IMG/VR virus record: IMGVR_UViG_3300050821_003843
Location: 1-64,000 of that record
Strand: one strand, 5' to 3'
DNA length: 64,000 bases
Origin: a virus
The notes beneath the pieces are model-generated. The model was not told where the DNA came from. It made no database searches and saw nothing but the letters and a program-made list of their open reading frames with translations. A program made the translations under genes and the position numbers. Positions 32,824-41,678 of this stretch are shown in pieces (position 1 is the first letter of the stretch; the number at the start of each line of letters is the position of its first letter).

Positions 32824-33662
32824 AAGACGTAATTGTCATTGGAGCGGGTATTATTGGCGCTACGATTGCTAAGTCACTACAGACGCAGGGAAGAGACGTA
32901 TTGGTGATTGATAGTAATGAGTCACTGGCGGGGACAAAACCCTCTGGGGGCCATTTAAAGCCATCATGGTTTGGAGGGATGTCGAAAACTGAGTATGAAC
33001 CTGCAATGGAACTACTCAATGAGACTTGGGGATTGATTGAAGAACAGTTTACTATCAAGGCGTTGGGAATCAGTACGGGCGTCACTTCAACGGTTTATCG
33101 AGTTGACACGGATAAGGTAATTGAGTTTCCAAGGGTTGTAGGAAGAGTGTGTTCATTACAGTTTTTGGATAACTACCCAAATGTTGTATGGAACAATGGT
33201 GAAAGTCAGGAACGTTGCCGCTTGTTGATTGTCGCGGCTGGAGTGTGGTGTGGAACGTTACTTCCACAACTTGCTTTGAAAATACAGCGTAAGCAGGGAA
33301 TATCGTTCCGATATAAAGGTCAGTTGAAAGAACCATTTATCAATCCGTGGGCACCATACAAGCAGATTGTTGCGCATCAACAATCGTCGAATGAGATTTG
33401 GATAGGCGATGGGTCTACGATACTACAACCAAACTGGACAGCTAAAAGAGAACTTGAGTGTCGAACACGATGTGAGAATAACTTACAGAAGATGCAGTAC
33501 ATTCGTTCTATTACTGGGTTGCGACCCTACTGTGAAAGTGGGAAAGACCCTTGTCTATTAAAACAAGTTTTCAACCGTGTATGGGTCGCGACAGGTGCGG
33601 GTAAGTCTGGGACCATTGCAGCGGGTTGGGTTGCTAGAAAGATCATTGATGCCACGAGCTAA
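32817..33662 (+). CDS. FAD-dependent oxidoreductase (glycine oxidase/DAO-like)
   Basis: VIGAGIIG dinucleotide fold; GLRPY; TGAGKSG. Confidence 0.88.
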   Translation: MVKDVIVIGAGIIGATIAKSLQTQGRDVLVIDSNESLAGTKPSGGHLKPSWFGGMSKTEYEPAMELLNETWGLIEEQFTIKALGISTGVTSTVYRVDTDKVIEFPRVVGRVCSLQFLDNYPNVVWNNGESQERCRLLIVAAGVWCGTLLPQLALKIQRKQGISFRYKGQLKEPFINPWAPYKQIVAHQQSSNEIWIGDGSTILQPNWTAKRELECRTRCENNLQKMQYIRSITGLRPYCESGKDPCLLKQVFNRVWVATGAGKSGTIAAGWVARKIIDATS

Positions 33663-34524
33663 AATCACTTCAGTCAATTGGACCTATGGGTGTGAGTTAG
33701 AACTAGGTGACGTGAGCAGAGACATAGTAATTCCTCTACAATATGGTAAATGGGAGTATGCTGAGACGGATATTGTCAACATACTTCCTCCATACCGGCA
33801 TGTTGCTTGTGACCCATTGGGGTTGGAACCACCAATGGGGGGTGAGATCAACACTGTTCCAACAATTGGTTGGAAATCACAAATCAAATTGATTGAAGAA
33901 TTGTTGAAATGGTTAATCACTGAGGGACAATCACCAACAACAAATTGTATATCACACACACACGTACATATCCACATACCGAGACTAGTACGTGACATTG
34001 AACTACTCAAAAAATTGACTAGGTATATAATGGAGAATCAAGTTAAATCTGTTGATAGTTGCCTTCAATTTGATTCTAGGCAAATGTCTGCAAAATTAGG
34101 GGCGGGATATTTGAAACTCGATTGTGGAAGACTGATGCCTGATTGGATGGGTGAGAATATTATCAACATGGCAAACTCGTTTGATGATTTTATCCGTATC
34201 CAGTGCTGTGGTAAAGATGGTGTCAGTCGTGGTAGACCGTTTCGATATGCGATCAATACATACTGCCTAAAGCACACACAGACAATTGAATTCCGACTAT
34301 TTCGTAGCTCACTTGACTTACTAGAGCTCTCTGACTGCTTTCGATTCGTGGAACAATTCATGTTGGCGGCATTGAATGATGGACCTTCAGTGGATGAGTT
34401 ATTGAGGGTAGGTTATAAGTTTCCTCCGTTTCGCTACTCGCTACCAGAAGTCGAAGGCTGGCTAAAAACGAAGTGGGATAAAAGTAGGGGGGAGAAGAAA
34501 CGTGAATTCATTCCAGTTACGTGA
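33649..34524 (+). CDS. Amidoligase (glutamine-synthetase-fold COOH-NH2 ligase)
   Basis: YGCELE, GGEINT, HTHVHI, RYAIN, TIEFR. Confidence 0.82.
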   Translation: MPRAKITSVNWTYGCELELGDVSRDIVIPLQYGKWEYAETDIVNILPPYRHVACDPLGLEPPMGGEINTVPTIGWKSQIKLIEELLKWLITEGQSPTTNCISHTHVHIHIPRLVRDIELLKKLTRYIMENQVKSVDSCLQFDSRQMSAKLGAGYLKLDCGRLMPDWMGENIINMANSFDDFIRIQCCGKDGVSRGRPFRYAINTYCLKHTQTIEFRLFRSSLDLLELSDCFRFVEQFMLAALNDGPSVDELLRVGYKFPPFRYSLPEVEGWLKTKWDKSRGEKKREFIPVT

Positions 34525-35032
34525 AACAACTCGCGGAGAGTTTGTGACTGCTACGGGGTTGCATCCAGTTGCGGCTGACTCATTTGCTAAAACATTTCGC
34601 GCTAAAGCCGATGCATTTGACCTATGGCCGTGCCTAGGCGTATGGAATGACAGGCAGCAACTGATGGGGGCGATTATTTGGACGATTACACAACGGCAAC
34701 CGCATATCGCAAATTTACAACTACTTCACACGTTCGCCGAGTATCGTCGACAGGGAGTGGCGTCAAAACTGTGTGTGGAGTGTTTAAATCGCGTGAGAGG
34801 GCTTGGGGCTGAGTATTTGAGGGTGAGTAGTGAGCCTGAAAGCGTGGCGTTTTACAAGAGCCTAGGCATTCAATTTTTAGGTAGGCAAAAATCAGGTTGC
34901 TTACTGGCGATGGGTCGATTAACGGGTACTGATGGCGATTTCAGACAACTTAATTACTCATTAGAACACGAGCCGATAAGAAAAGCAGTGTTCCGAAAGG
35001 GTAAAGGAGGTTGTGTTGAAGTGTTTAAATAA
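34502..35032 (+). CDS. GNAT acetyltransferase
   Basis: LHTFAEYRRQGVASKL acetyl-CoA motif; SVAFYKSLG. Confidence 0.85.
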   Translation: MNSFQLRETTRGEFVTATGLHPVAADSFAKTFRAKADAFDLWPCLGVWNDRQQLMGAIIWTITQRQPHIANLQLLHTFAEYRRQGVASKLCVECLNRVRGLGAEYLRVSSEPESVAFYKSLGIQFLGRQKSGCLLAMGRLTGTDGDFRQLNYSLEHEPIRKAVFRKGKGGCVEVFK

Positions 35033-35088: not shown

Positions 35089-35505
35089 TTATTGCTTGAC
35101 CCACACATTTCCCCGCTTACCTTCGGTTGATCCGTAAGCAACTCGACCGTCTTCCACCATCAATTTCAAATGATTGACGACAGGACCACCCTCTTTTCCA
35201 CCGGGTGTACGACCTAGTCCGACAACGATTTCACGTGAGGAGTAATCGTGACCCTTCTTCATGAACTTGAGGATTTGATTTTGGAGTTCGGTTGTGTCGG
35301 TTCGTGTTGCTCGTGGGGCTGATTCCTTTTTCACTAATTTCGCAGCAGCCTTTTTCGTAGCCACTTTTTTCACGGGGGCAGTTGACTTGGCGGCAACCTT
35401 TTTCACTGCCTCCTTTTTAACAGGGGCAGGTGATGCAGCAGCATTCACGGGAGCACCGGTGACCACGCCATCAATCACAGCGTTTCCAACAACTTTCTTA
35501 GCCAT
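35089..35505 (-). CDS. Histone H1-like Lys/Ala-rich protein with C-terminal winged helix
   Basis: PVKK..AVKKVAAK repeats; ILKFM..SSREIV..HLKLMVEDGRV. Confidence 0.7.
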   Translation of the reverse strand: MAKKVVGNAVIDGVVTGAPVNAAASPAPVKKEAVKKVAAKSTAPVKKVATKKAAAKLVKKESAPRATRTDTTELQNQILKFMKKGHDYSSREIVVGLGRTPGGKEGGPVVNHLKLMVEDGRVAYGSTEGKRGNVWVKQ

Positions 35506-35939: not shown

Positions 35940-36557
35940 ATGAGAGAAATTGTTCGGATTCTCGTTGACATGGACGGTCTGTTGACGAATTTTGATGACG
36001 CGGCGTGCCTCGCACATGGCTTTCCGATCCAAATGTTACACGATTACAGGCAGCCGGGTGAATGGTCGCTCATCCCTATTTTCGCTCGAATGCGGGGCGA
36101 AATCATGAGTGTGGAGGAATTTTGGAGGGTGATTGGCGAACATGGTGAACTATTTTGGACCTCGTTGGCGCAAACCGAATGGATGGACCCATTGCTCCAA
36201 TTGGTTAAAGAATTCAACGGTAGTGATTGGCATGTGGTAACAGCCCCAAGCCATTGCCCCACGTCGTATAGTGGAAAGGTGAAGTGGTTGAAGTCACGAC
36301 TTGGCAAGGAATTTGATCGGGTACTGGCAACCCCGCACAAGGAAATTTTAGCCATGCCGGGTGTTATACTGATTGATGACAACGAACAAAACATACAACG
36401 GTTTAAACTGGCCGGTGGTAGTGGGATCTTGTTCCCAATAATGGGGAACTGTCTACATCACTTGGCAAATAATCCAGTGGCTTACGTGCGTGAACAGATA
36501 GAAGAAAGGCTGTATAAGGATGAATCTGAAAGTAGGGCAGATAGTCACGTGGCTTGA
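35940..36557 (+). CDS. HAD-family 5'(3')-deoxyribonucleotidase
   Basis: LVDMDGLL, TAP, GKVKWL, LIDD. Confidence 0.85.
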   Translation: MREIVRILVDMDGLLTNFDDAACLAHGFPIQMLHDYRQPGEWSLIPIFARMRGEIMSVEEFWRVIGEHGELFWTSLAQTEWMDPLLQLVKEFNGSDWHVVTAPSHCPTSYSGKVKWLKSRLGKEFDRVLATPHKEILAMPGVILIDDNEQNIQRFKLAGGSGILFPIMGNCLHHLANNPVAYVREQIEERLYKDESESRADSHVA

Positions 36558-36725
36558 ACCAATTCGCACACAGATTGAAAACCGTGGGAATATGTTGGGA
36601 CCACGGATGATAGATCAGGAATTACACCACAGTGGTGAAGTGATTTCGATTGAGGGTGATTCGTGTACGGTACGCGATTCATGGGGTTTGATTTGGCAAC
36701 TGAAAATTGAAAAGGACAAGTTGAC

Positions 36726-37862
36726 ATGCATCTAAAGTATCCAAACGTAAATGACGCATTCCACGAATTGGTCTACGGAATTCATAATGGACACATTCCA
36801 ACCGTGTCATCACCTAGTAGAGTTGGTGACGTGTTACAAATCCAAGAACCTGTGATTGTCACATATGAAAAGCCGCTAGAGAGGGTGCTGTTCAACCCTG
36901 CACGCGATGTTAATCCATTCCTGAACTTGTATGAAACACTTTGGATGTTGGCTGGCCGTAATGACATTGCACCATTGGAATATTACTCTAAGAACTATGG
37001 TCAGTTCGTGGATGATGGTGATGGAATGCAGAATGCAGCATATGGATATAGGTGGAGACATGCATTACATAAAGAAATGGGAGATCCATGTAGTAAGTGT
37101 GGTGAGAGCGTTCCTTGTCACTGCGACGCACCATATTGTGTAGATCAACTCAAAGTTATTATCGACCATTTACGAAAGATACCAACGTCAAGACGTGTCG
37201 TGCTCCAAATGTGGAACGTAGAAGATGACTTACTCAAGATTGAAACAACAAAAGATGTTGCGTGCAATCTATGTGCGTTGTTCTCGTTGAGACAAGCTAG
37301 TCGAAAAGAAATAGAAGAAGAGGCACATAACGGCTACTATCTCGATATGACGGTCTACAATCGCTCGAATGACTTGACTCTTGGACTTTTGGGGGCGAAC
37401 GTTGTTCACTTCTCATTTCTACAAGAATACATGGCGAATTGCTTAGGCGTTCAGGTGGGGGTGTATAATCAAGTGAGTAACAATCTCCATTGTTACACAT
37501 CACGTTGGGAACCAGATAAGTGGTTAGCAGAAGGTGTGTGTGATGAGTACAGAAACCAACAGTGGAATCATGTACCGTTAGTTAAGGACCAACAGACGTT
37601 TGATAGTGAGTGTCGTAATTTTGTGGCTATGAACTTTTGCGGTGGTGTAATCCACGATAACCGTTGGGAAGAACCATTTTTGCGAACCGTGGCGCAACCG
37701 ATGATGAATGCCTTCCATTATCACAAACATCGCAAATACTGGGAAGCGTTGAATCACGGTGTTGCGAACATTGCTGACGGCGCTTGGCAATTGTGCGCAT
37801 ACAGATGGATTGAGAAACGACGACTGGCTTGGGAAGCGAAAAAGGAGACGAATGATGAGTAG
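36726..37862 (+). CDS. Thymidylate synthase homologue, probable dUMP hydroxymethylase
   Basis: AYGYRWR, SRRVVLQMW, DVACN, NRSND..GANVVHF (Asn at the dUMP-specificity position), NNLHCY; genomic context. Confidence 0.85.
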   Translation: MHLKYPNVNDAFHELVYGIHNGHIPTVSSPSRVGDVLQIQEPVIVTYEKPLERVLFNPARDVNPFLNLYETLWMLAGRNDIAPLEYYSKNYGQFVDDGDGMQNAAYGYRWRHALHKEMGDPCSKCGESVPCHCDAPYCVDQLKVIIDHLRKIPTSRRVVLQMWNVEDDLLKIETTKDVACNLCALFSLRQASRKEIEEEAHNGYYLDMTVYNRSNDLTLGLLGANVVHFSFLQEYMANCLGVQVGVYNQVSNNLHCYTSRWEPDKWLAEGVCDEYRNQQWNHVPLVKDQQTFDSECRNFVAMNFCGGVIHDNRWEEPFLRTVAQPMMNAFHYHKHRKYWEALNHGVANIADGAWQLCAYRWIEKRRLAWEAKKETNDE

Positions 37863-38097
37863 AGAAGTGTTACGCATGGCAACGATGGTGGCGAATCAAC
37901 GATTGAACTGTATCAAACGAGTCAAGGAGTTAAACAATCAACTCGGGTTGTTGCCATCAATGAAGCCAGAAGAGGTTGACAAGTCATTGAGGGAACTTGG
38001 ATTACAGATCCTGAACCTCGATAATCTCCAGTCAGAATACCAGTCAATGAAACTACAAGCGGAGAACAGTGGTGATCTACCAGCCAATACGCACTAA
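37852..38097 (+). CDS. Small coiled-coil protein
   Basis: AGGAG SD; coupled to the TS homologue. Confidence 0.5.
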   Translation: MMSREVLRMATMVANQRLNCIKRVKELNNQLGLLPSMKPEEVDKSLRELGLQILNLDNLQSEYQSMKLQAENSGDLPANTH

Positions 38098-38636
38098 GAC
38101 AGATTTTGTACGGAGGTATTCCTAGCGGAGAATTTGGCAATAGGTCTCCCACATGGAACGGCTGGCTTGATTGGAATAAAGATCATCTAGGTTCTGATAA
38201 GTTTGAATTGTTTCACATTCGAAATCGTGTTGCAGGTGCAATGACTTGGTATGACGTGCCCAAATTCAAAATGGCTGATACGTGGGATATCGCTTGTCAA
38301 CACTTTAGCGTGGAACAGTTGTACATATCTGCTATGTGCCCTACTGAGTTGACACAAATCCAAGGTGAGGTAATGAGAACAGCCAAAGGACTGTATCTCT
38401 ATTACTCAACCGTAAAGAAGCCGATGCGTCAATCATTGTTGGAAGGGGGTCAAGAAGCACTAGGACTATTTGCAGTTTCTTTACTACAATACTACATGGA
38501 TCAAAACAGTTGGGAATGGTTGAATCACTTACTCGATAGTTATGAAGATCATGTCGTAGAGTTTACAACGCTCTCCAAACGGTGGGGCGCAGTCGAAGGA
38601 TATAACACACTATTTTGGGAGGTTAGAAAGTTCTAA
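38072..38636 (+). CDS. Hypothetical protein, probably made via +1 frameshift at 38120-38125
   Basis: GGAG+GTG start, frame stops at TCC-TAG; +1 frame continues SGEFGNRSPTW..WEVRKF; the TTG at 38106 lacks an SD. Confidence 0.6.
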
Positions 38637-39358
38637 TGGATATTAAACAGTACGAAGAAGCCAGCATGCGCACGATGGCAGACCAGAATGTGATTCGTCT
38701 ACGTAATTTTGAAGGCGTAGATAAAAAAGGTAATCCACAATTTGGCGGAAAAAATAGTAGTACAGTTCTGACACAACTCGACAACGCTGCTAGAGGCATG
38801 GCTGGTGATGTGGGTGAGGTCAATACGTGTGTACAACAAGCATTGGAGTATGGTAAACTACTAGACTTGGTGAATTTGAAGGAAGAACTAGGTGATGTGT
38901 TATGGCGAATCGTACAAGCATGTAACGCCGTGGGGTTCACGTTGGAGGAAGTGATGCAAGCGAACATTTCAAAGCTGGCTATAAGATACCCCGACAAGTA
39001 CACGGACCACTTAGCAGATGAGGCAAATCGAAATCGTGAAGCAGAACGACAAGCAATCACGGTTCCACAACTAGGCGAACCTTATCCAGTTGGTCATACG
39101 AATGACGGTGGAGTGATTGTAGAACCAATGTCACCAACCAGAACAGTAATGTCTCAAACTGGACAAGGTTGGGCAGAACCAAAAGAACAACGTGATACGG
39201 GACCGGGTCGATTGGATCAAGAACTAGAATACCCAGTTTCCAATGCATTTGTGTCTGCTGCTGATGCCCCTGTTCGTAGATGTCGAAAGTGCGGGTTGAA
39301 GATCCATCGTAATCAACCAAGTGATATCTGTTCAAGTTGCTTCAAACCTACAACGTGA
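38636..39358 (+). CDS. MazG-like nucleotide pyrophosphohydrolase
   Basis: GMAGDVGEV, KEELGDVLW, ANISKLAIRYP; C-terminal CxxC..CxxC. Confidence 0.85.
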   Translation: MDIKQYEEASMRTMADQNVIRLRNFEGVDKKGNPQFGGKNSSTVLTQLDNAARGMAGDVGEVNTCVQQALEYGKLLDLVNLKEELGDVLWRIVQACNAVGFTLEEVMQANISKLAIRYPDKYTDHLADEANRNREAERQAITVPQLGEPYPVGHTNDGGVIVEPMSPTRTVMSQTGQGWAEPKEQRDTGPGRLDQELEYPVSNAFVSAADAPVRRCRKCGLKIHRNQPSDICSSCFKPTT

Positions 39359-39398
39359 GGATAGTTGATGACTTATCAAGTATTAGTTAGGATGAGTA

Positions 39399-41678
39399 AT
39401 GCCTAAAGCGATTGAACGTGACACACTTCCAGCGGGGTTGAAGCCCTTTCGGTTCCACGGTCTTGATTTGAGTTATAAGGATGGTGATAAAAATGCAACG
39501 TGTCTGTGCCCATTTTGTGGTAAGGAAGGGAAGTTCACAATCCTTGCTGAGACGAGTCAATGGAGGTGTTTCAGTTGTAATGAGGGATTTGAGAAGAAGG
39601 ACAACAATGGCCATGCGAAGTCGATCAAGGGTGGTAATGCTACGGAATTTCTACGTCTGTTGTGGAAATACTGTGATGCAGAACCTTGTGACTACACCGA
39701 ATTGGTAAAGGATCGCACATTACTCAGCCCAGTGATGTTGGTGCGTTGGGAGGTAGTCAAGTCATTTCTAACGGGTGAGTGGCTGATGCCCGCGTATAAC
39801 ATCAAGGGAGAACTGATCCAACTCTATCGTTACGTGAATTGTAAAAACCCCAAAACAGGTGAGTGGAAACGTAAGTTGATTCCCACACCCGAAGTGGGTG
39901 GTCATGGATTATTCGGGATGAGTGGATTCGACAGTAAGCGACCGATCATTGATGTGTTCGAATCATGGAACGGTGTGGTCTATGAGGAAGTGATTAGTCA
40001 GATTGGTATGAATGCTGAGACTGAGAAGTGGGAGGAGGTTGGTAAGTTCAAGGATTCGTTGGGGGCTGAACGAAATGTGATTGGCTTACCCGGTTGCGCT
40101 ACGTTCGATTCGAAGTGGATGCCATTGTTTAAAGATCGTGTGGTCAACTTTTGGTTCGATAACGATCATCCCCAAGTGAATGAGCGAAATGGGCAATCAA
40201 CAACGGGGGCGGGCTGGCTGTATTCGTGTCGTAATTCCAGCACACTTTTGAAGGTGGCGAAATCGGTACAGGTGTTAAAGTGGGGTGAGCAAGGTTTCGA
40301 CCCCGAATTGACTTCGGGTTACGACGTTAGGGACGCTCTGAAGGCCCATAAATCGCTTTTGGGGCGTTCGGCGGCATTATTTGACCTAAAGGTCAAGTTA
40401 CAAACCGTGGCCGCTAACGAGGTCGTATCGAGCGCAAATTCGGCAGCGGGGGATGTGAATACCAAGCTACGACCGAAAACGTGTACCGACTTCAAAACAC
40501 TGGTCAATTCGTGGAAGAAGCCGATGCGCTGGCGACAGGAGATGGAGGACGCTTTAGCGATCTGTCTAGCGGTGGGTTTGTCAACGGAACAGGTAGGGGA
40601 CCAGTTGTTTCTGATGCTGATCGCTGACGCCGGGAGTGGAAAAACTTGTTTCTGTGATGCGTTACTTGTGGCGGAAAATAGTTACCCGGTTGAGAACGTG
40701 ACAGGCTTGTATTCTGGCTGGCAGGGTGGTGGCTTCAGCCCATTGGAACGTATGAATCGTAAAATGTGGATTACAGCAGAGGGGGACACGGTTGTACAAC
40801 ATCCCGCATTTCCTCAATTCATGTCACAAATTCGACGCGCATTCGATGGAAAGGGCCATGCCACATTCAAGAACTCGAAAGAGGATCAGTTATTCGATGG
40901 TCTTAGATTTACGTGGTTGCTGGCTGGTACACCAACAATGATTGACCTGATGAACAATCAAGCCTCATTGGGAGACCGGTTCCTCAAATTCTTTATCGGA
41001 CAACCGGACGACGATGAGCGTCGACAGATACTCATGAGATCGGCTTACTCAGCAAAGCGGGCAGTACAAATCAAGTCGGGTGATGATGCAGAACATCAAC
41101 TCGATCCAGCGTTGTGCGAGGCGTACCAGTTGACGGGAGGTTATCTCAATTGGCTTAGATCAAATACTGATCTACTCGCCAAAGTTGAAATGGATGATGA
41201 GCGATTGATGCAATGCGCTGACTTGGGAGAGTTCACGGCTTGCTTACGCGCTCGACCGGGTAAGACGAAAACCGATGAAGCCCACGATGCGAAGGAAATG
41301 CCCACACGTCTAACAAAACAATTTGTACGGGTGGCGATGTGCCTTGCTGTGGTGTGCAATCGAGGGTCAGTCGATCAGCATATAATGGACCTAGTGCGAA
41401 AGTTGACACTCGATACGTCAATGGGGGTCACACTACAGATCGTGAAGCAACTCTATGCAAAAGGGAATGAGGGGTTGTCATACGGGGCACTGGCGCAACT
41501 GGTGAGTATGACGAATGACAAAGTCAAATCCATGTTACGGTTTTTACACAAACTGAAAATCGTGGCATGGTACGAACCGATTGATGAGGAAACACAAAAG
41601 AAGTTACCTCACAAATGGCGAGTGACGAAACACATGGCGGAACTTTACAAATCTGTGATTGTTGATTGGGGACAATAA
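39399..41678 (+). CDS. Primase-helicase (Zn finger, TOPRIM-like, P-loop)
   Basis: CPFC..CFSC; FESW..FDND..GYDVRD; ADAGSGKT; LGDRFL. Confidence 0.8.
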   Translation: MPKAIERDTLPAGLKPFRFHGLDLSYKDGDKNATCLCPFCGKEGKFTILAETSQWRCFSCNEGFEKKDNNGHAKSIKGGNATEFLRLLWKYCDAEPCDYTELVKDRTLLSPVMLVRWEVVKSFLTGEWLMPAYNIKGELIQLYRYVNCKNPKTGEWKRKLIPTPEVGGHGLFGMSGFDSKRPIIDVFESWNGVVYEEVISQIGMNAETEKWEEVGKFKDSLGAERNVIGLPGCATFDSKWMPLFKDRVVNFWFDNDHPQVNERNGQSTTGAGWLYSCRNSSTLLKVAKSVQVLKWGEQGFDPELTSGYDVRDALKAHKSLLGRSAALFDLKVKLQTVAANEVVSSANSAAGDVNTKLRPKTCTDFKTLVNSWKKPMRWRQEMEDALAICLAVGLSTEQVGDQLFLMLIADAGSGKTCFCDALLVAENSYPVENVTGLYSGWQGGGFSPLERMNRKMWITAEGDTVVQHPAFPQFMSQIRRAFDGKGHATFKNSKEDQLFDGLRFTWLLAGTPTMIDLMNNQASLGDRFLKFFIGQPDDDERRQILMRSAYSAKRAVQIKSGDDAEHQLDPALCEAYQLTGGYLNWLRSNTDLLAKVEMDDERLMQCADLGEFTACLRARPGKTKTDEAHDAKEMPTRLTKQFVRVAMCLAVVCNRGSVDQHIMDLVRKLTLDTSMGVTLQIVKQLYAKGNEGLSYGALAQLVSMTNDKVKSMLRFLHKLKIVAWYEPIDEETQKKLPHKWRVTKHMAELYKSVIVDWGQ

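Follow-up and report, generated by a model that had tools for sequence, protein, structure and literature searches.

The 64,000-nucleotide stretch of viral DNA analysed here (the window; positions 1 to 64,000 of IMG/VR virus record IMGVR_UViG_3300050821_003843) carries on its plus strand a thymidylate-synthase-family gene, a possible pyrimidine hydroxymethylase (36726-37862; PF00303, E 1.3e-21; phrog_5131, E 2e-86), and a gene for a MazG-like nucleotide pyrophosphohydrolase (38636-39358; PF03819, E 1.8e-9; phrog_229, E 3e-26), and between the two lies an ATP-grasp-like gene that is divided between two reading frames. The ATG of the MazG-like gene overlaps the stop codon of the downstream piece, ORF1, by one base. 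An 81-aa ORF of no known family on the same strand (37852-38097; no Pfam, PHROGs or NCBIfam match) overlaps both the stop of the thymidylate-synthase-like gene and the start of the upstream piece, ORF0, and has no counterpart in the same gap in the related loci L063 (ORFs of at least 60 aa) and L142 (at least 50 aa). The order thymidylate-synthase-like, ATP-grasp-like, MazG is also found in L063, and MazG is missing in L142. Because it adjoins the thymidylate-synthase-like and MazG genes, the divided gene is a candidate for an enzyme of phage nucleotide or DNA modification, and as such its product may have a role in modifying nucleotides or DNA bases. Upstream on the same strand, within 33577-35032 and 35940-36557, are three further genes, encoding a 315-aa product with no Pfam, PHROG or NCBIfam match, a GNAT acetyltransferase (34502-35032) and a 5'-deoxyribonucleotidase-like protein (35940-36557), and these together with the thymidylate-synthase-like, ATP-grasp-like and MazG genes look like a cluster for the modification of nucleotides or bases. 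Immediately before the operon, the window (35089-35505, minus strand) and L063 (6715-7101, minus strand) each have an oppositely oriented gene for a Lys/Ala-rich protein of about 130-138 aa with no Pfam or PHROG match. A scan for promoters and terminators gave counts at or below the shuffled level.

The upstream piece of the divided gene, ORF0 (38072-38125, plus strand), has a GTG start, 16 sense codons translated as IYQPIRTKTDFVRRYS, and a TAG stop (38123-38125) followed by C (38126), and encodes the family's conserved N-terminal motif. It is served by a ribosome-binding site, GGAG, which we read from the sequence at 38061-38064 (plus strand), 4 nt ahead of a GTG at 38069-38071 and 7 nt ahead of the adjacent, in-frame GTG at 38072-38074. 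Shortly before its stop, ORF0 contains an internal Shine-Dalgarno-like element, GGAGGT (38112-38117, plus strand), whose GGAGG core (38112-38116) ends 6 nt before the TAG; the core is followed by the spacer TAT, a conserved Tyr codon (38117-38119), by the Ser codon TCC (38120-38122, plus strand), which forms a pyrimidine run with the T of the stop and is the proposed P-site shift codon as placed by homology, and by TAG and C (38123-38126, plus strand), so that the whole site reads GGAGGTATTCCTAGC. The downstream piece, ORF1 (38124-38636, plus strand), is in the +1 frame and begins with AGC, continues into GEFGN and encodes the remainder of the ATP-grasp-like protein up to its stop. The frame of ORF1 is open from 38076, and mechanical ORF calling had listed it from a TTG at 38106-38108 (plus strand) to 38636, as a 176-aa product (P0001). 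This TTG has no GGAG-like ribosome-binding site upstream, and a product begun there would be missing, from the N-terminal motif, its invariant Lys along with the further conserved residues P, V, D, F and R, which suggests on sequence grounds that it is probably not the true start. A preliminary description, made from the letters of the DNA, had reported a prfB-like cassette with GGAG, GTG and GGAGG-TAT-TCC-TAG-C, and a long ORF in the +1 frame whose TTG lacks a Shine-Dalgarno sequence; its coordinates and its reading of the site are correct.

The GGAGGT element is spelled by CGG followed by AGG, the two rarest Arg codons of the window's genome, G000 (87 and 93, respectively, of 1036 Arg codons, a count that includes some spurious ORFs), and arithmetic from these counts puts the usage-based chance of an Arg pair spelling GGAGG at about 0.0075. 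A second GGAGG-N6-TAGC string occurs at 40544-40558, inside a 759-aa ORF (39399-41678) whose only match is a weak one to a DNA-primase PHROG (E 0.0079); the TAG of this string is out of frame, and it is thus a chance match.

The protein belongs to a family that is so far known only from metagenomes. Neither the 176-aa form nor a 187-aa form joined across the break matches any Pfam, PHROG or NCBIfam model, ATP-grasp models included; a PDB sequence search gave no match (best E 0.21), and nothing was found in 50,697 GenBank phage records using blastn of 36700-39400 and tblastn of the 176-aa protein. A word-indexed search yielded 110 relatives among 125 candidates, and a profile search of 1.84 billion representatives yielded 1471 with E of at most 0.001, 1269 of them with E of at most 1e-10, such that the family comprises 1471 representatives at 50% identity. 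Alignment of 42 of these 110 sequences shows PVLTKxDFVxRYxxGEFGN as an unbroken motif in a single frame, in which conservation reaches at least 90% at P, V, K, F, V, R and Y. The window splits this motif, having everything up to RYS in the short ORF and SGEFGN in the long one. Homologues, both in the alignment and among the family loci, have a contiguous TKxDFVRRYxxGEFGN and do not begin at YGG, so that a check proposed in the preliminary description comes out in favour of its reading. By this homology the shift must fall between the Tyr codon at 38117-38119 and the Gly codon at 38127-38129, and a one-base skip after TCC brings back precisely the two residues that separate RY from GEFGN in the family.

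Translation with TAGC as one step gives a shifted product of 187 aa (P0111), for which AlphaFold, with 63 homologues, returned a model of pLDDT 95.9 and pTM 0.88. Foldseek placed ATP-grasp enzymes at the top of the matches in both PDB and BFVD, at TM of about 0.5: RimK 7qys (E 4.3e-4, TM 0.50 over 182 columns), followed by Ddl (D-Ala-D-Ala ligase), LysX/ArgX, biotin carboxylase, tubulin-tyrosine ligases, and phage and giant-virus ATP-grasp and TTL proteins. The invariant residues of the family include K9, R50, E163 and H160. This model supports a compact ATP-grasp fold, in agreement with what had been a loose ATP-grasp-like guess from the C-terminus. Compared with RimK, Ddl, LysX/ArgX and TTL, the predicted protein has the same fold by Foldseek, but at about 187 aa it is only roughly the ATP-binding core, and identity is 8-15%.

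The addition of one or two bases by sequencing or assembly error has in its favour that all three records in which the break is found (see below) are metagenome assemblies, and that read-level data exist for the window only and at depth 2. Those data comprise a 151-nt contig from a separate, public Illumina RNA library that matches 38031-38181, the only part covered of the 2501 bases compared, with no differences and no gaps. The contig may come from the same sample as the assembly, and it may represent carried-over DNA; as its sequence is identical at the site, the extra base is not peculiar to one assembly, and the library molecule shows no correction at the RNA level. This contig speaks against the one-nucleotide assembly insertion that the preliminary description wished to exclude. 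The site also lacks a homopolymer. The break falls on one and the same codon in three separate assemblies, each time accompanied by GGAGG, which an indel cannot create and which no in-frame gene has at this position, and the three genomes showed no further frame break (54-59 ORFs shared by G000 and G002, and 13-20 shared with G001, in a comparison that used stop-to-stop ORFs and required both pieces to score on their own). Taken together, error is the least credible explanation of the break, and we consider it most unlikely.

Family loci were collected from IMG/VR via the alignment (58 loci) and via a DNA pattern for EFGNxxPTW (50 stretches); of the 49 stretches that were new, 36 are in-frame family genes, 11 are unrelated, one lies too near the end of its locus and one is broken. 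In this collection, two other phages have the gene broken at the same codon as the window. One is a 70.5-kb record, represented by L037, L063, L079 and L143, with 44-47% identity, in which the upstream frame reads ...KKDFVRRYS and then stops, at the site GGAGGTACTCTTAGCT. The other is a 47-kb fragment, represented by L108 and L142, with 49% identity, in which it reads ...KTDFVRRFL and then stops, at the site GGAGGTTTCTCTAGCT. GGAGG, three bases, an all-pyrimidine codon, TAG and C are common to all three breaks, with TCC, TCT and CTC as the shift codons, so that the check proposed in the preliminary description, whether relatives conserve the cassette, comes out in favour in two further phages. 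The zero-frame ORF of each of the three still has a start and a ribosome-binding site of its own, and the unshifted product is a peptide of 17-26 residues.

Among 37 distinct N-terminal DNA segments from the IMG/VR loci, 34 are in frame and three are broken; the gap between the RY and EFGN codons is 9 nt in 33 of the in-frame segments and 12 nt in one, and 10, 11 and 11 nt in the broken ones. In 3/3 broken segments a GGAGG stops 6 nt short of an in-frame TAG with C after it, and GGAGG occurs there in 0/34 in-frame segments, a split with an exact probability, by arithmetic, of 1 in 7770; a four-base Shine-Dalgarno-like word is at the site in 3/34 in-frame segments. All three breaks fall within the same two codons of a gene of about 187 codons, and no break elsewhere was seen in 16 more distant family loci, all of which are in one frame except L047, which is cut by the contig end. 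TAGC at the end of TAG-terminated ORFs of at least 120 aa occurs in 0/17 cases in G000, 7/28 in G002 and 3/15 in G001. In a tree of 129 family sequences, for which the part from GEFGN onwards was used, the three broken genes lie apart from one another and in-frame genes are their nearest relatives; few deep branches of this tree are supported, and an AU test on a 49-row subset did not reject a single clade of broken genes (lnL difference 28, p 0.167). In either case the cassette looks selected, whether it originated at that codon repeatedly or persisted while the genes diverged to 44-49% identity.

An alternative is that the breaks are genuine mutations and go undecoded, the gene being dead or dying in three phages and the likeness to prfB coincidental. 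Only 3/37 distinct segments are broken, most relatives do well with an in-frame gene, and L142 has lost 6/51 conserved residues, one of them invariant in A2, which could reflect relaxed selection there. Against this, both pieces are open and conserved in every case: of the 51 columns that are at least 90% conserved, the two pieces together keep 49 in the window, 49 in L143 and 45 in L142. The three breaks moreover lie within the same two codons, all of them with a GGAGG, TAG and C, the first of which is missing from the in-frame genes at this place, and all of them with the start and ribosome-binding site of the zero-frame ORF kept. Such decay we regard as quite unlikely.

The two pieces might instead be made separately, the C-terminal domain starting at TTG 38106 or by re-initiation after the TAG, with the N-terminal peptide either cooperating with it or dispensable. 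The window does have that TTG in the downstream frame, gene callers gave the 176-aa form P0001, and GGAGG could in principle hold a terminating ribosome. In contrast, the first ATG, GTG or TTG in the downstream frame of the two relatives comes only 24 and 38 codons beyond the glycine of GEFGN, and as such their downstream piece cannot start alone without losing invariant residues. The TTG in the window is without a ribosome-binding site, none of the three has a start codon in the right frame 4-12 nt beyond GGAGG, and in the model one compact fold takes in the N-terminal helix (residues 9-17, pLDDT 87-92) together with the remainder of the protein. Separate synthesis of the pieces is on this evidence very unlikely.

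As the same signal is found at the same codon in two other phages, the break is most likely read through by forward-slipping ribosomes, and since its geometry equals that of prfB we propose that the slip is driven by the Shine-Dalgarno-like element at the TAG-C. We consider it likely, from comparison of sequences, that this gene of the phage nucleotide-metabolism or modification operon encodes an ATP-grasp-like enzyme of about 187 aa and that its expression requires programmed ribosomal frameshifting, which supports the programmed-frameshift reading of the preliminary description. In the proposed mechanism, ribosomes would start at GTG 38072 (or 38069), translate the 16 sense codons and then stall, the P site holding TCC with its peptidyl-tRNA-Ser and the A site the poorly terminated TAG-C. 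GGAGGT, which lies two bases ahead of the P-site codon, would then pair with the 3' end of 16S rRNA, and this spacing, too short as in prfB, would loosen pairing in the P site and allow the mRNA to move forward by one base, whereupon AGC would be read next and translation would go on into the +1 frame. Ribosomes that do not shift would release the 17-residue peptide, so that the yield of enzyme would be set by competition between RF1 and the forward slip. What the sequences show is the split, the conservation of both pieces and the presence of the cassette at one codon in three phage genomes; that ribosomes slip there, how efficiently they do so and any role of RF1 are what we infer from the arrangement of the site. 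RF1 sensing is not supported in the form put forward in the preliminary description, and would be a possible property of this mechanism.

The step size is where the simple prfB picture is incomplete. From the Tyr or Phe codon to the Gly codon there are 7 nt in the window and 8 nt in both relatives; as such the window needs +1, and L143 and L142 need +2 or -1, of which +2 would give the two residues usual in the family and -1 would give three, as in 1/34 in-frame segments. The prfB-like +1 shift of the preliminary description thus has comparative support in the window but does not extend to the relatives, and one simple rule does not cover all three cassettes. On our reading, tRNA-Ser on UCC would re-pair with CCU at only 2/3 positions; for TCC, +1 is nevertheless predicted to give better re-pairing than +2, and for CTC (onto CTA) and TCT (onto TTA) +2 is predicted to be better than +1. 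A rule by which re-pairing sets the step size is post hoc. No stimulatory RNA structure shared by the three cassettes was found (z 0.93, 0.30 and -2.5). L143 has a 10-bp hairpin just upstream, at 1465-1490, that pairs part of the Shine-Dalgarno-like element and is present in neither of the other two cassettes; the 96-nt fold there has z -2.5, and 2/200 shuffles fold as well.

These difficulties leave some room for another kind of recoding at the same cassette, either a short forward bypass of the stop by one or two bases, or reading of TAGC or TAGCT out of frame or not in triplets. With the ribosome stalled at TAG-C, the new frame would be set by the tRNA that enters next, which is Ser on AGC for the window and Ala on GCT for the relatives. 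Such recoding would accommodate the differing distances between the Tyr/Phe and Gly codons, the poor P-site re-pairing of UCC to CCU, and the TAGC that is common to all three cassettes. In the portion of PMC5009743 available to us, one antizyme cassette yields +1 or -2 depending on the host, and step size is thus not fixed by a cassette alone. On the other side, there are no matched take-off and landing codons, no special tRNA borne by the phages is apparent, and the site matches the geometry of prfB exactly, going by the available part of PMC12421855. We therefore think recoding of this kind unlikely, and prefer a forward slip stimulated by the Shine-Dalgarno-like element.

Several other routes through the break were considered and rejected. 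Reading of TAG as an amino acid is countered by a frame that continues for five codons after the TAG and then stops, and TAG ends 17/76 of the long ORFs of G000. Transcriptional slippage would find no homopolymer, and the RNA-library contig equals the DNA. For codon-matched hopping there is no landing codon: no matched take-off and landing codons follow TCC, TCT or CTC within the gap of 1-2 nt. A phage suppressor or odd tRNA was not found in G000, G001 or G002, there being no tRNA genes in the window, the rest of G000 or G001, and a single tRNA-Met in G002.

Only three instances in the family were found; pattern scans recovered as family members only L063 and L108 (in one scan of 13 hits) or L063 alone, in the latter case with no other match, with one unrelated AT-rich match, or as the sole family member among 15 matches. 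A JGI metagenome scan with the spacer fixed as TAY gave three matches, namely L037's own scaffold and two unrelated sequences, and because this pattern demanded a TAY spacer, sites of the L108 type were undetectable in it. No cassette match was obtained from 185,579 species genomes, and a version of the cassette with TAA or TGA had 22 matches, none of them in the family. We note that the family proteins P0079, P0188, P0229, P0162, P0190, P0228 and P0230 begin at or just after the GEFGN/PTW motif, P0079 starting one residue before SEFGN. These may be further broken genes called from a downstream start, like P0001 and like P0207, a database protein that is exactly such a truncated call from L142. 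As gene callers split or truncate the gene in this way (P0001, P0207), the conserved N-terminus, including the invariant Lys, is lost from annotation. In the full-text literature searched, from which many subscription journals are missing, neither a programmed frameshift in a phage ATP-grasp gene nor a prfB-like UAG cassette in phages is described.

A wider interpretation, which we offer tentatively and regard as possible rather than probable, is that GGAGG-N3-YYY-TAG-C is a general forward-slip module in which the step is not fixed, one and the same Shine-Dalgarno-driven stall at an RF1 codon giving +1 in one phage and a natural +2 in two. What sets the step would in this case be either the place at which the P-site tRNA finds new pairing or the codon that is presented next. 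If this were true, the two relatives would provide natural programmed +2 frameshifts, and through the cassette the phages would tie the amount of a DNA-precursor or modification enzyme to the RF1 activity of the host. We know of no natural programmed +2 frameshifts; in the literature consulted, +2 is mentioned only in the title of Weiss et al. (1987).

In bacteria, stop-dependent frameshifts stimulated by a Shine-Dalgarno sequence are essentially a speciality of prfB, according to RECODE counts quoted in the part of PMC10274946 available to us. The architecture of prfB is now found in an unrelated phage enzyme gene, with an RF1 codon, in three diverged genomes. It may as such provide a second natural system for testing how the P site is destabilised by short Shine-Dalgarno spacing. 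The occurrence of +1 and +2/-1 versions of a single homologous site amounts to a natural experiment on what sets the step size. In the available part of PMC12421855, the prfB signal consists of a Shine-Dalgarno-like element six nt before an early stop, with the shift codon three nt after the element, the shift codon and the first base of the stop forming a pyrimidine run, C following the stop, and the element absent from in-frame genes; GG_AGG occurs as a variant of the RF2 element in the accessible text of PMC5009743. So far as these sources go, the window, L143 and L142 share with prfB the element 6 nt before an early in-frame stop and the 3-nt spacer, all three broken genes share the run of four pyrimidines and the C after the stop, in-frame relatives likewise lack the element, and the short ORF0 is likewise near the 5' end of the gene. 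In contrast to prfB, the stop is TAG in all three genes, and is read by RF1 only, rather than TGA or TAA; because of this the product of the gene would not autoregulate its synthesis. In place of CTT the shift codons are TCC, TCT and CTC, such that the slippery re-pairing of tRNA-Leu on CTT-T is absent, the gene is that of a phage ATP-grasp-like enzyme, and two of the three cassettes need +2 or -1.

Among other systems, the +1 frameshift of eukaryotic ornithine decarboxylase antizyme has UCC directly before the stop, as does the window with its TCC, and in the portion of PMC10274946 seen +1 re-pairing of tRNA-Ser on the antizyme UCC is poor. Antizyme differs in having UGA, polyamine sensing and a 3' pseudoknot, whereas the cassette has TAG, a 5' Shine-Dalgarno-like stimulator and no shared 3' structure, with TCT and CTC in the relatives. 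The bypass in T4 gene 60, as presented in the available part of PMC7026636, also involves a phage gene, a UAG after the take-off codon and forward movement over untranslated bases. Gene 60 skips 50 nt between matched GGA codons and uses a take-off stem-loop, in contrast to the one or two bases skipped here with no conserved stem-loop. The frameshifts of tail-assembly chaperones, in the accessible text of PMC5009743, are likewise conserved in phages and vary in step (-1, -2 or +1) at the same position in the gene. Unlike those frameshifts, which yield two useful products in a fixed ratio and use slippery runs, the cassette described here would leave unshifted ribosomes with only a short peptide, and its signal is a Shine-Dalgarno-like element together with a stop codon.
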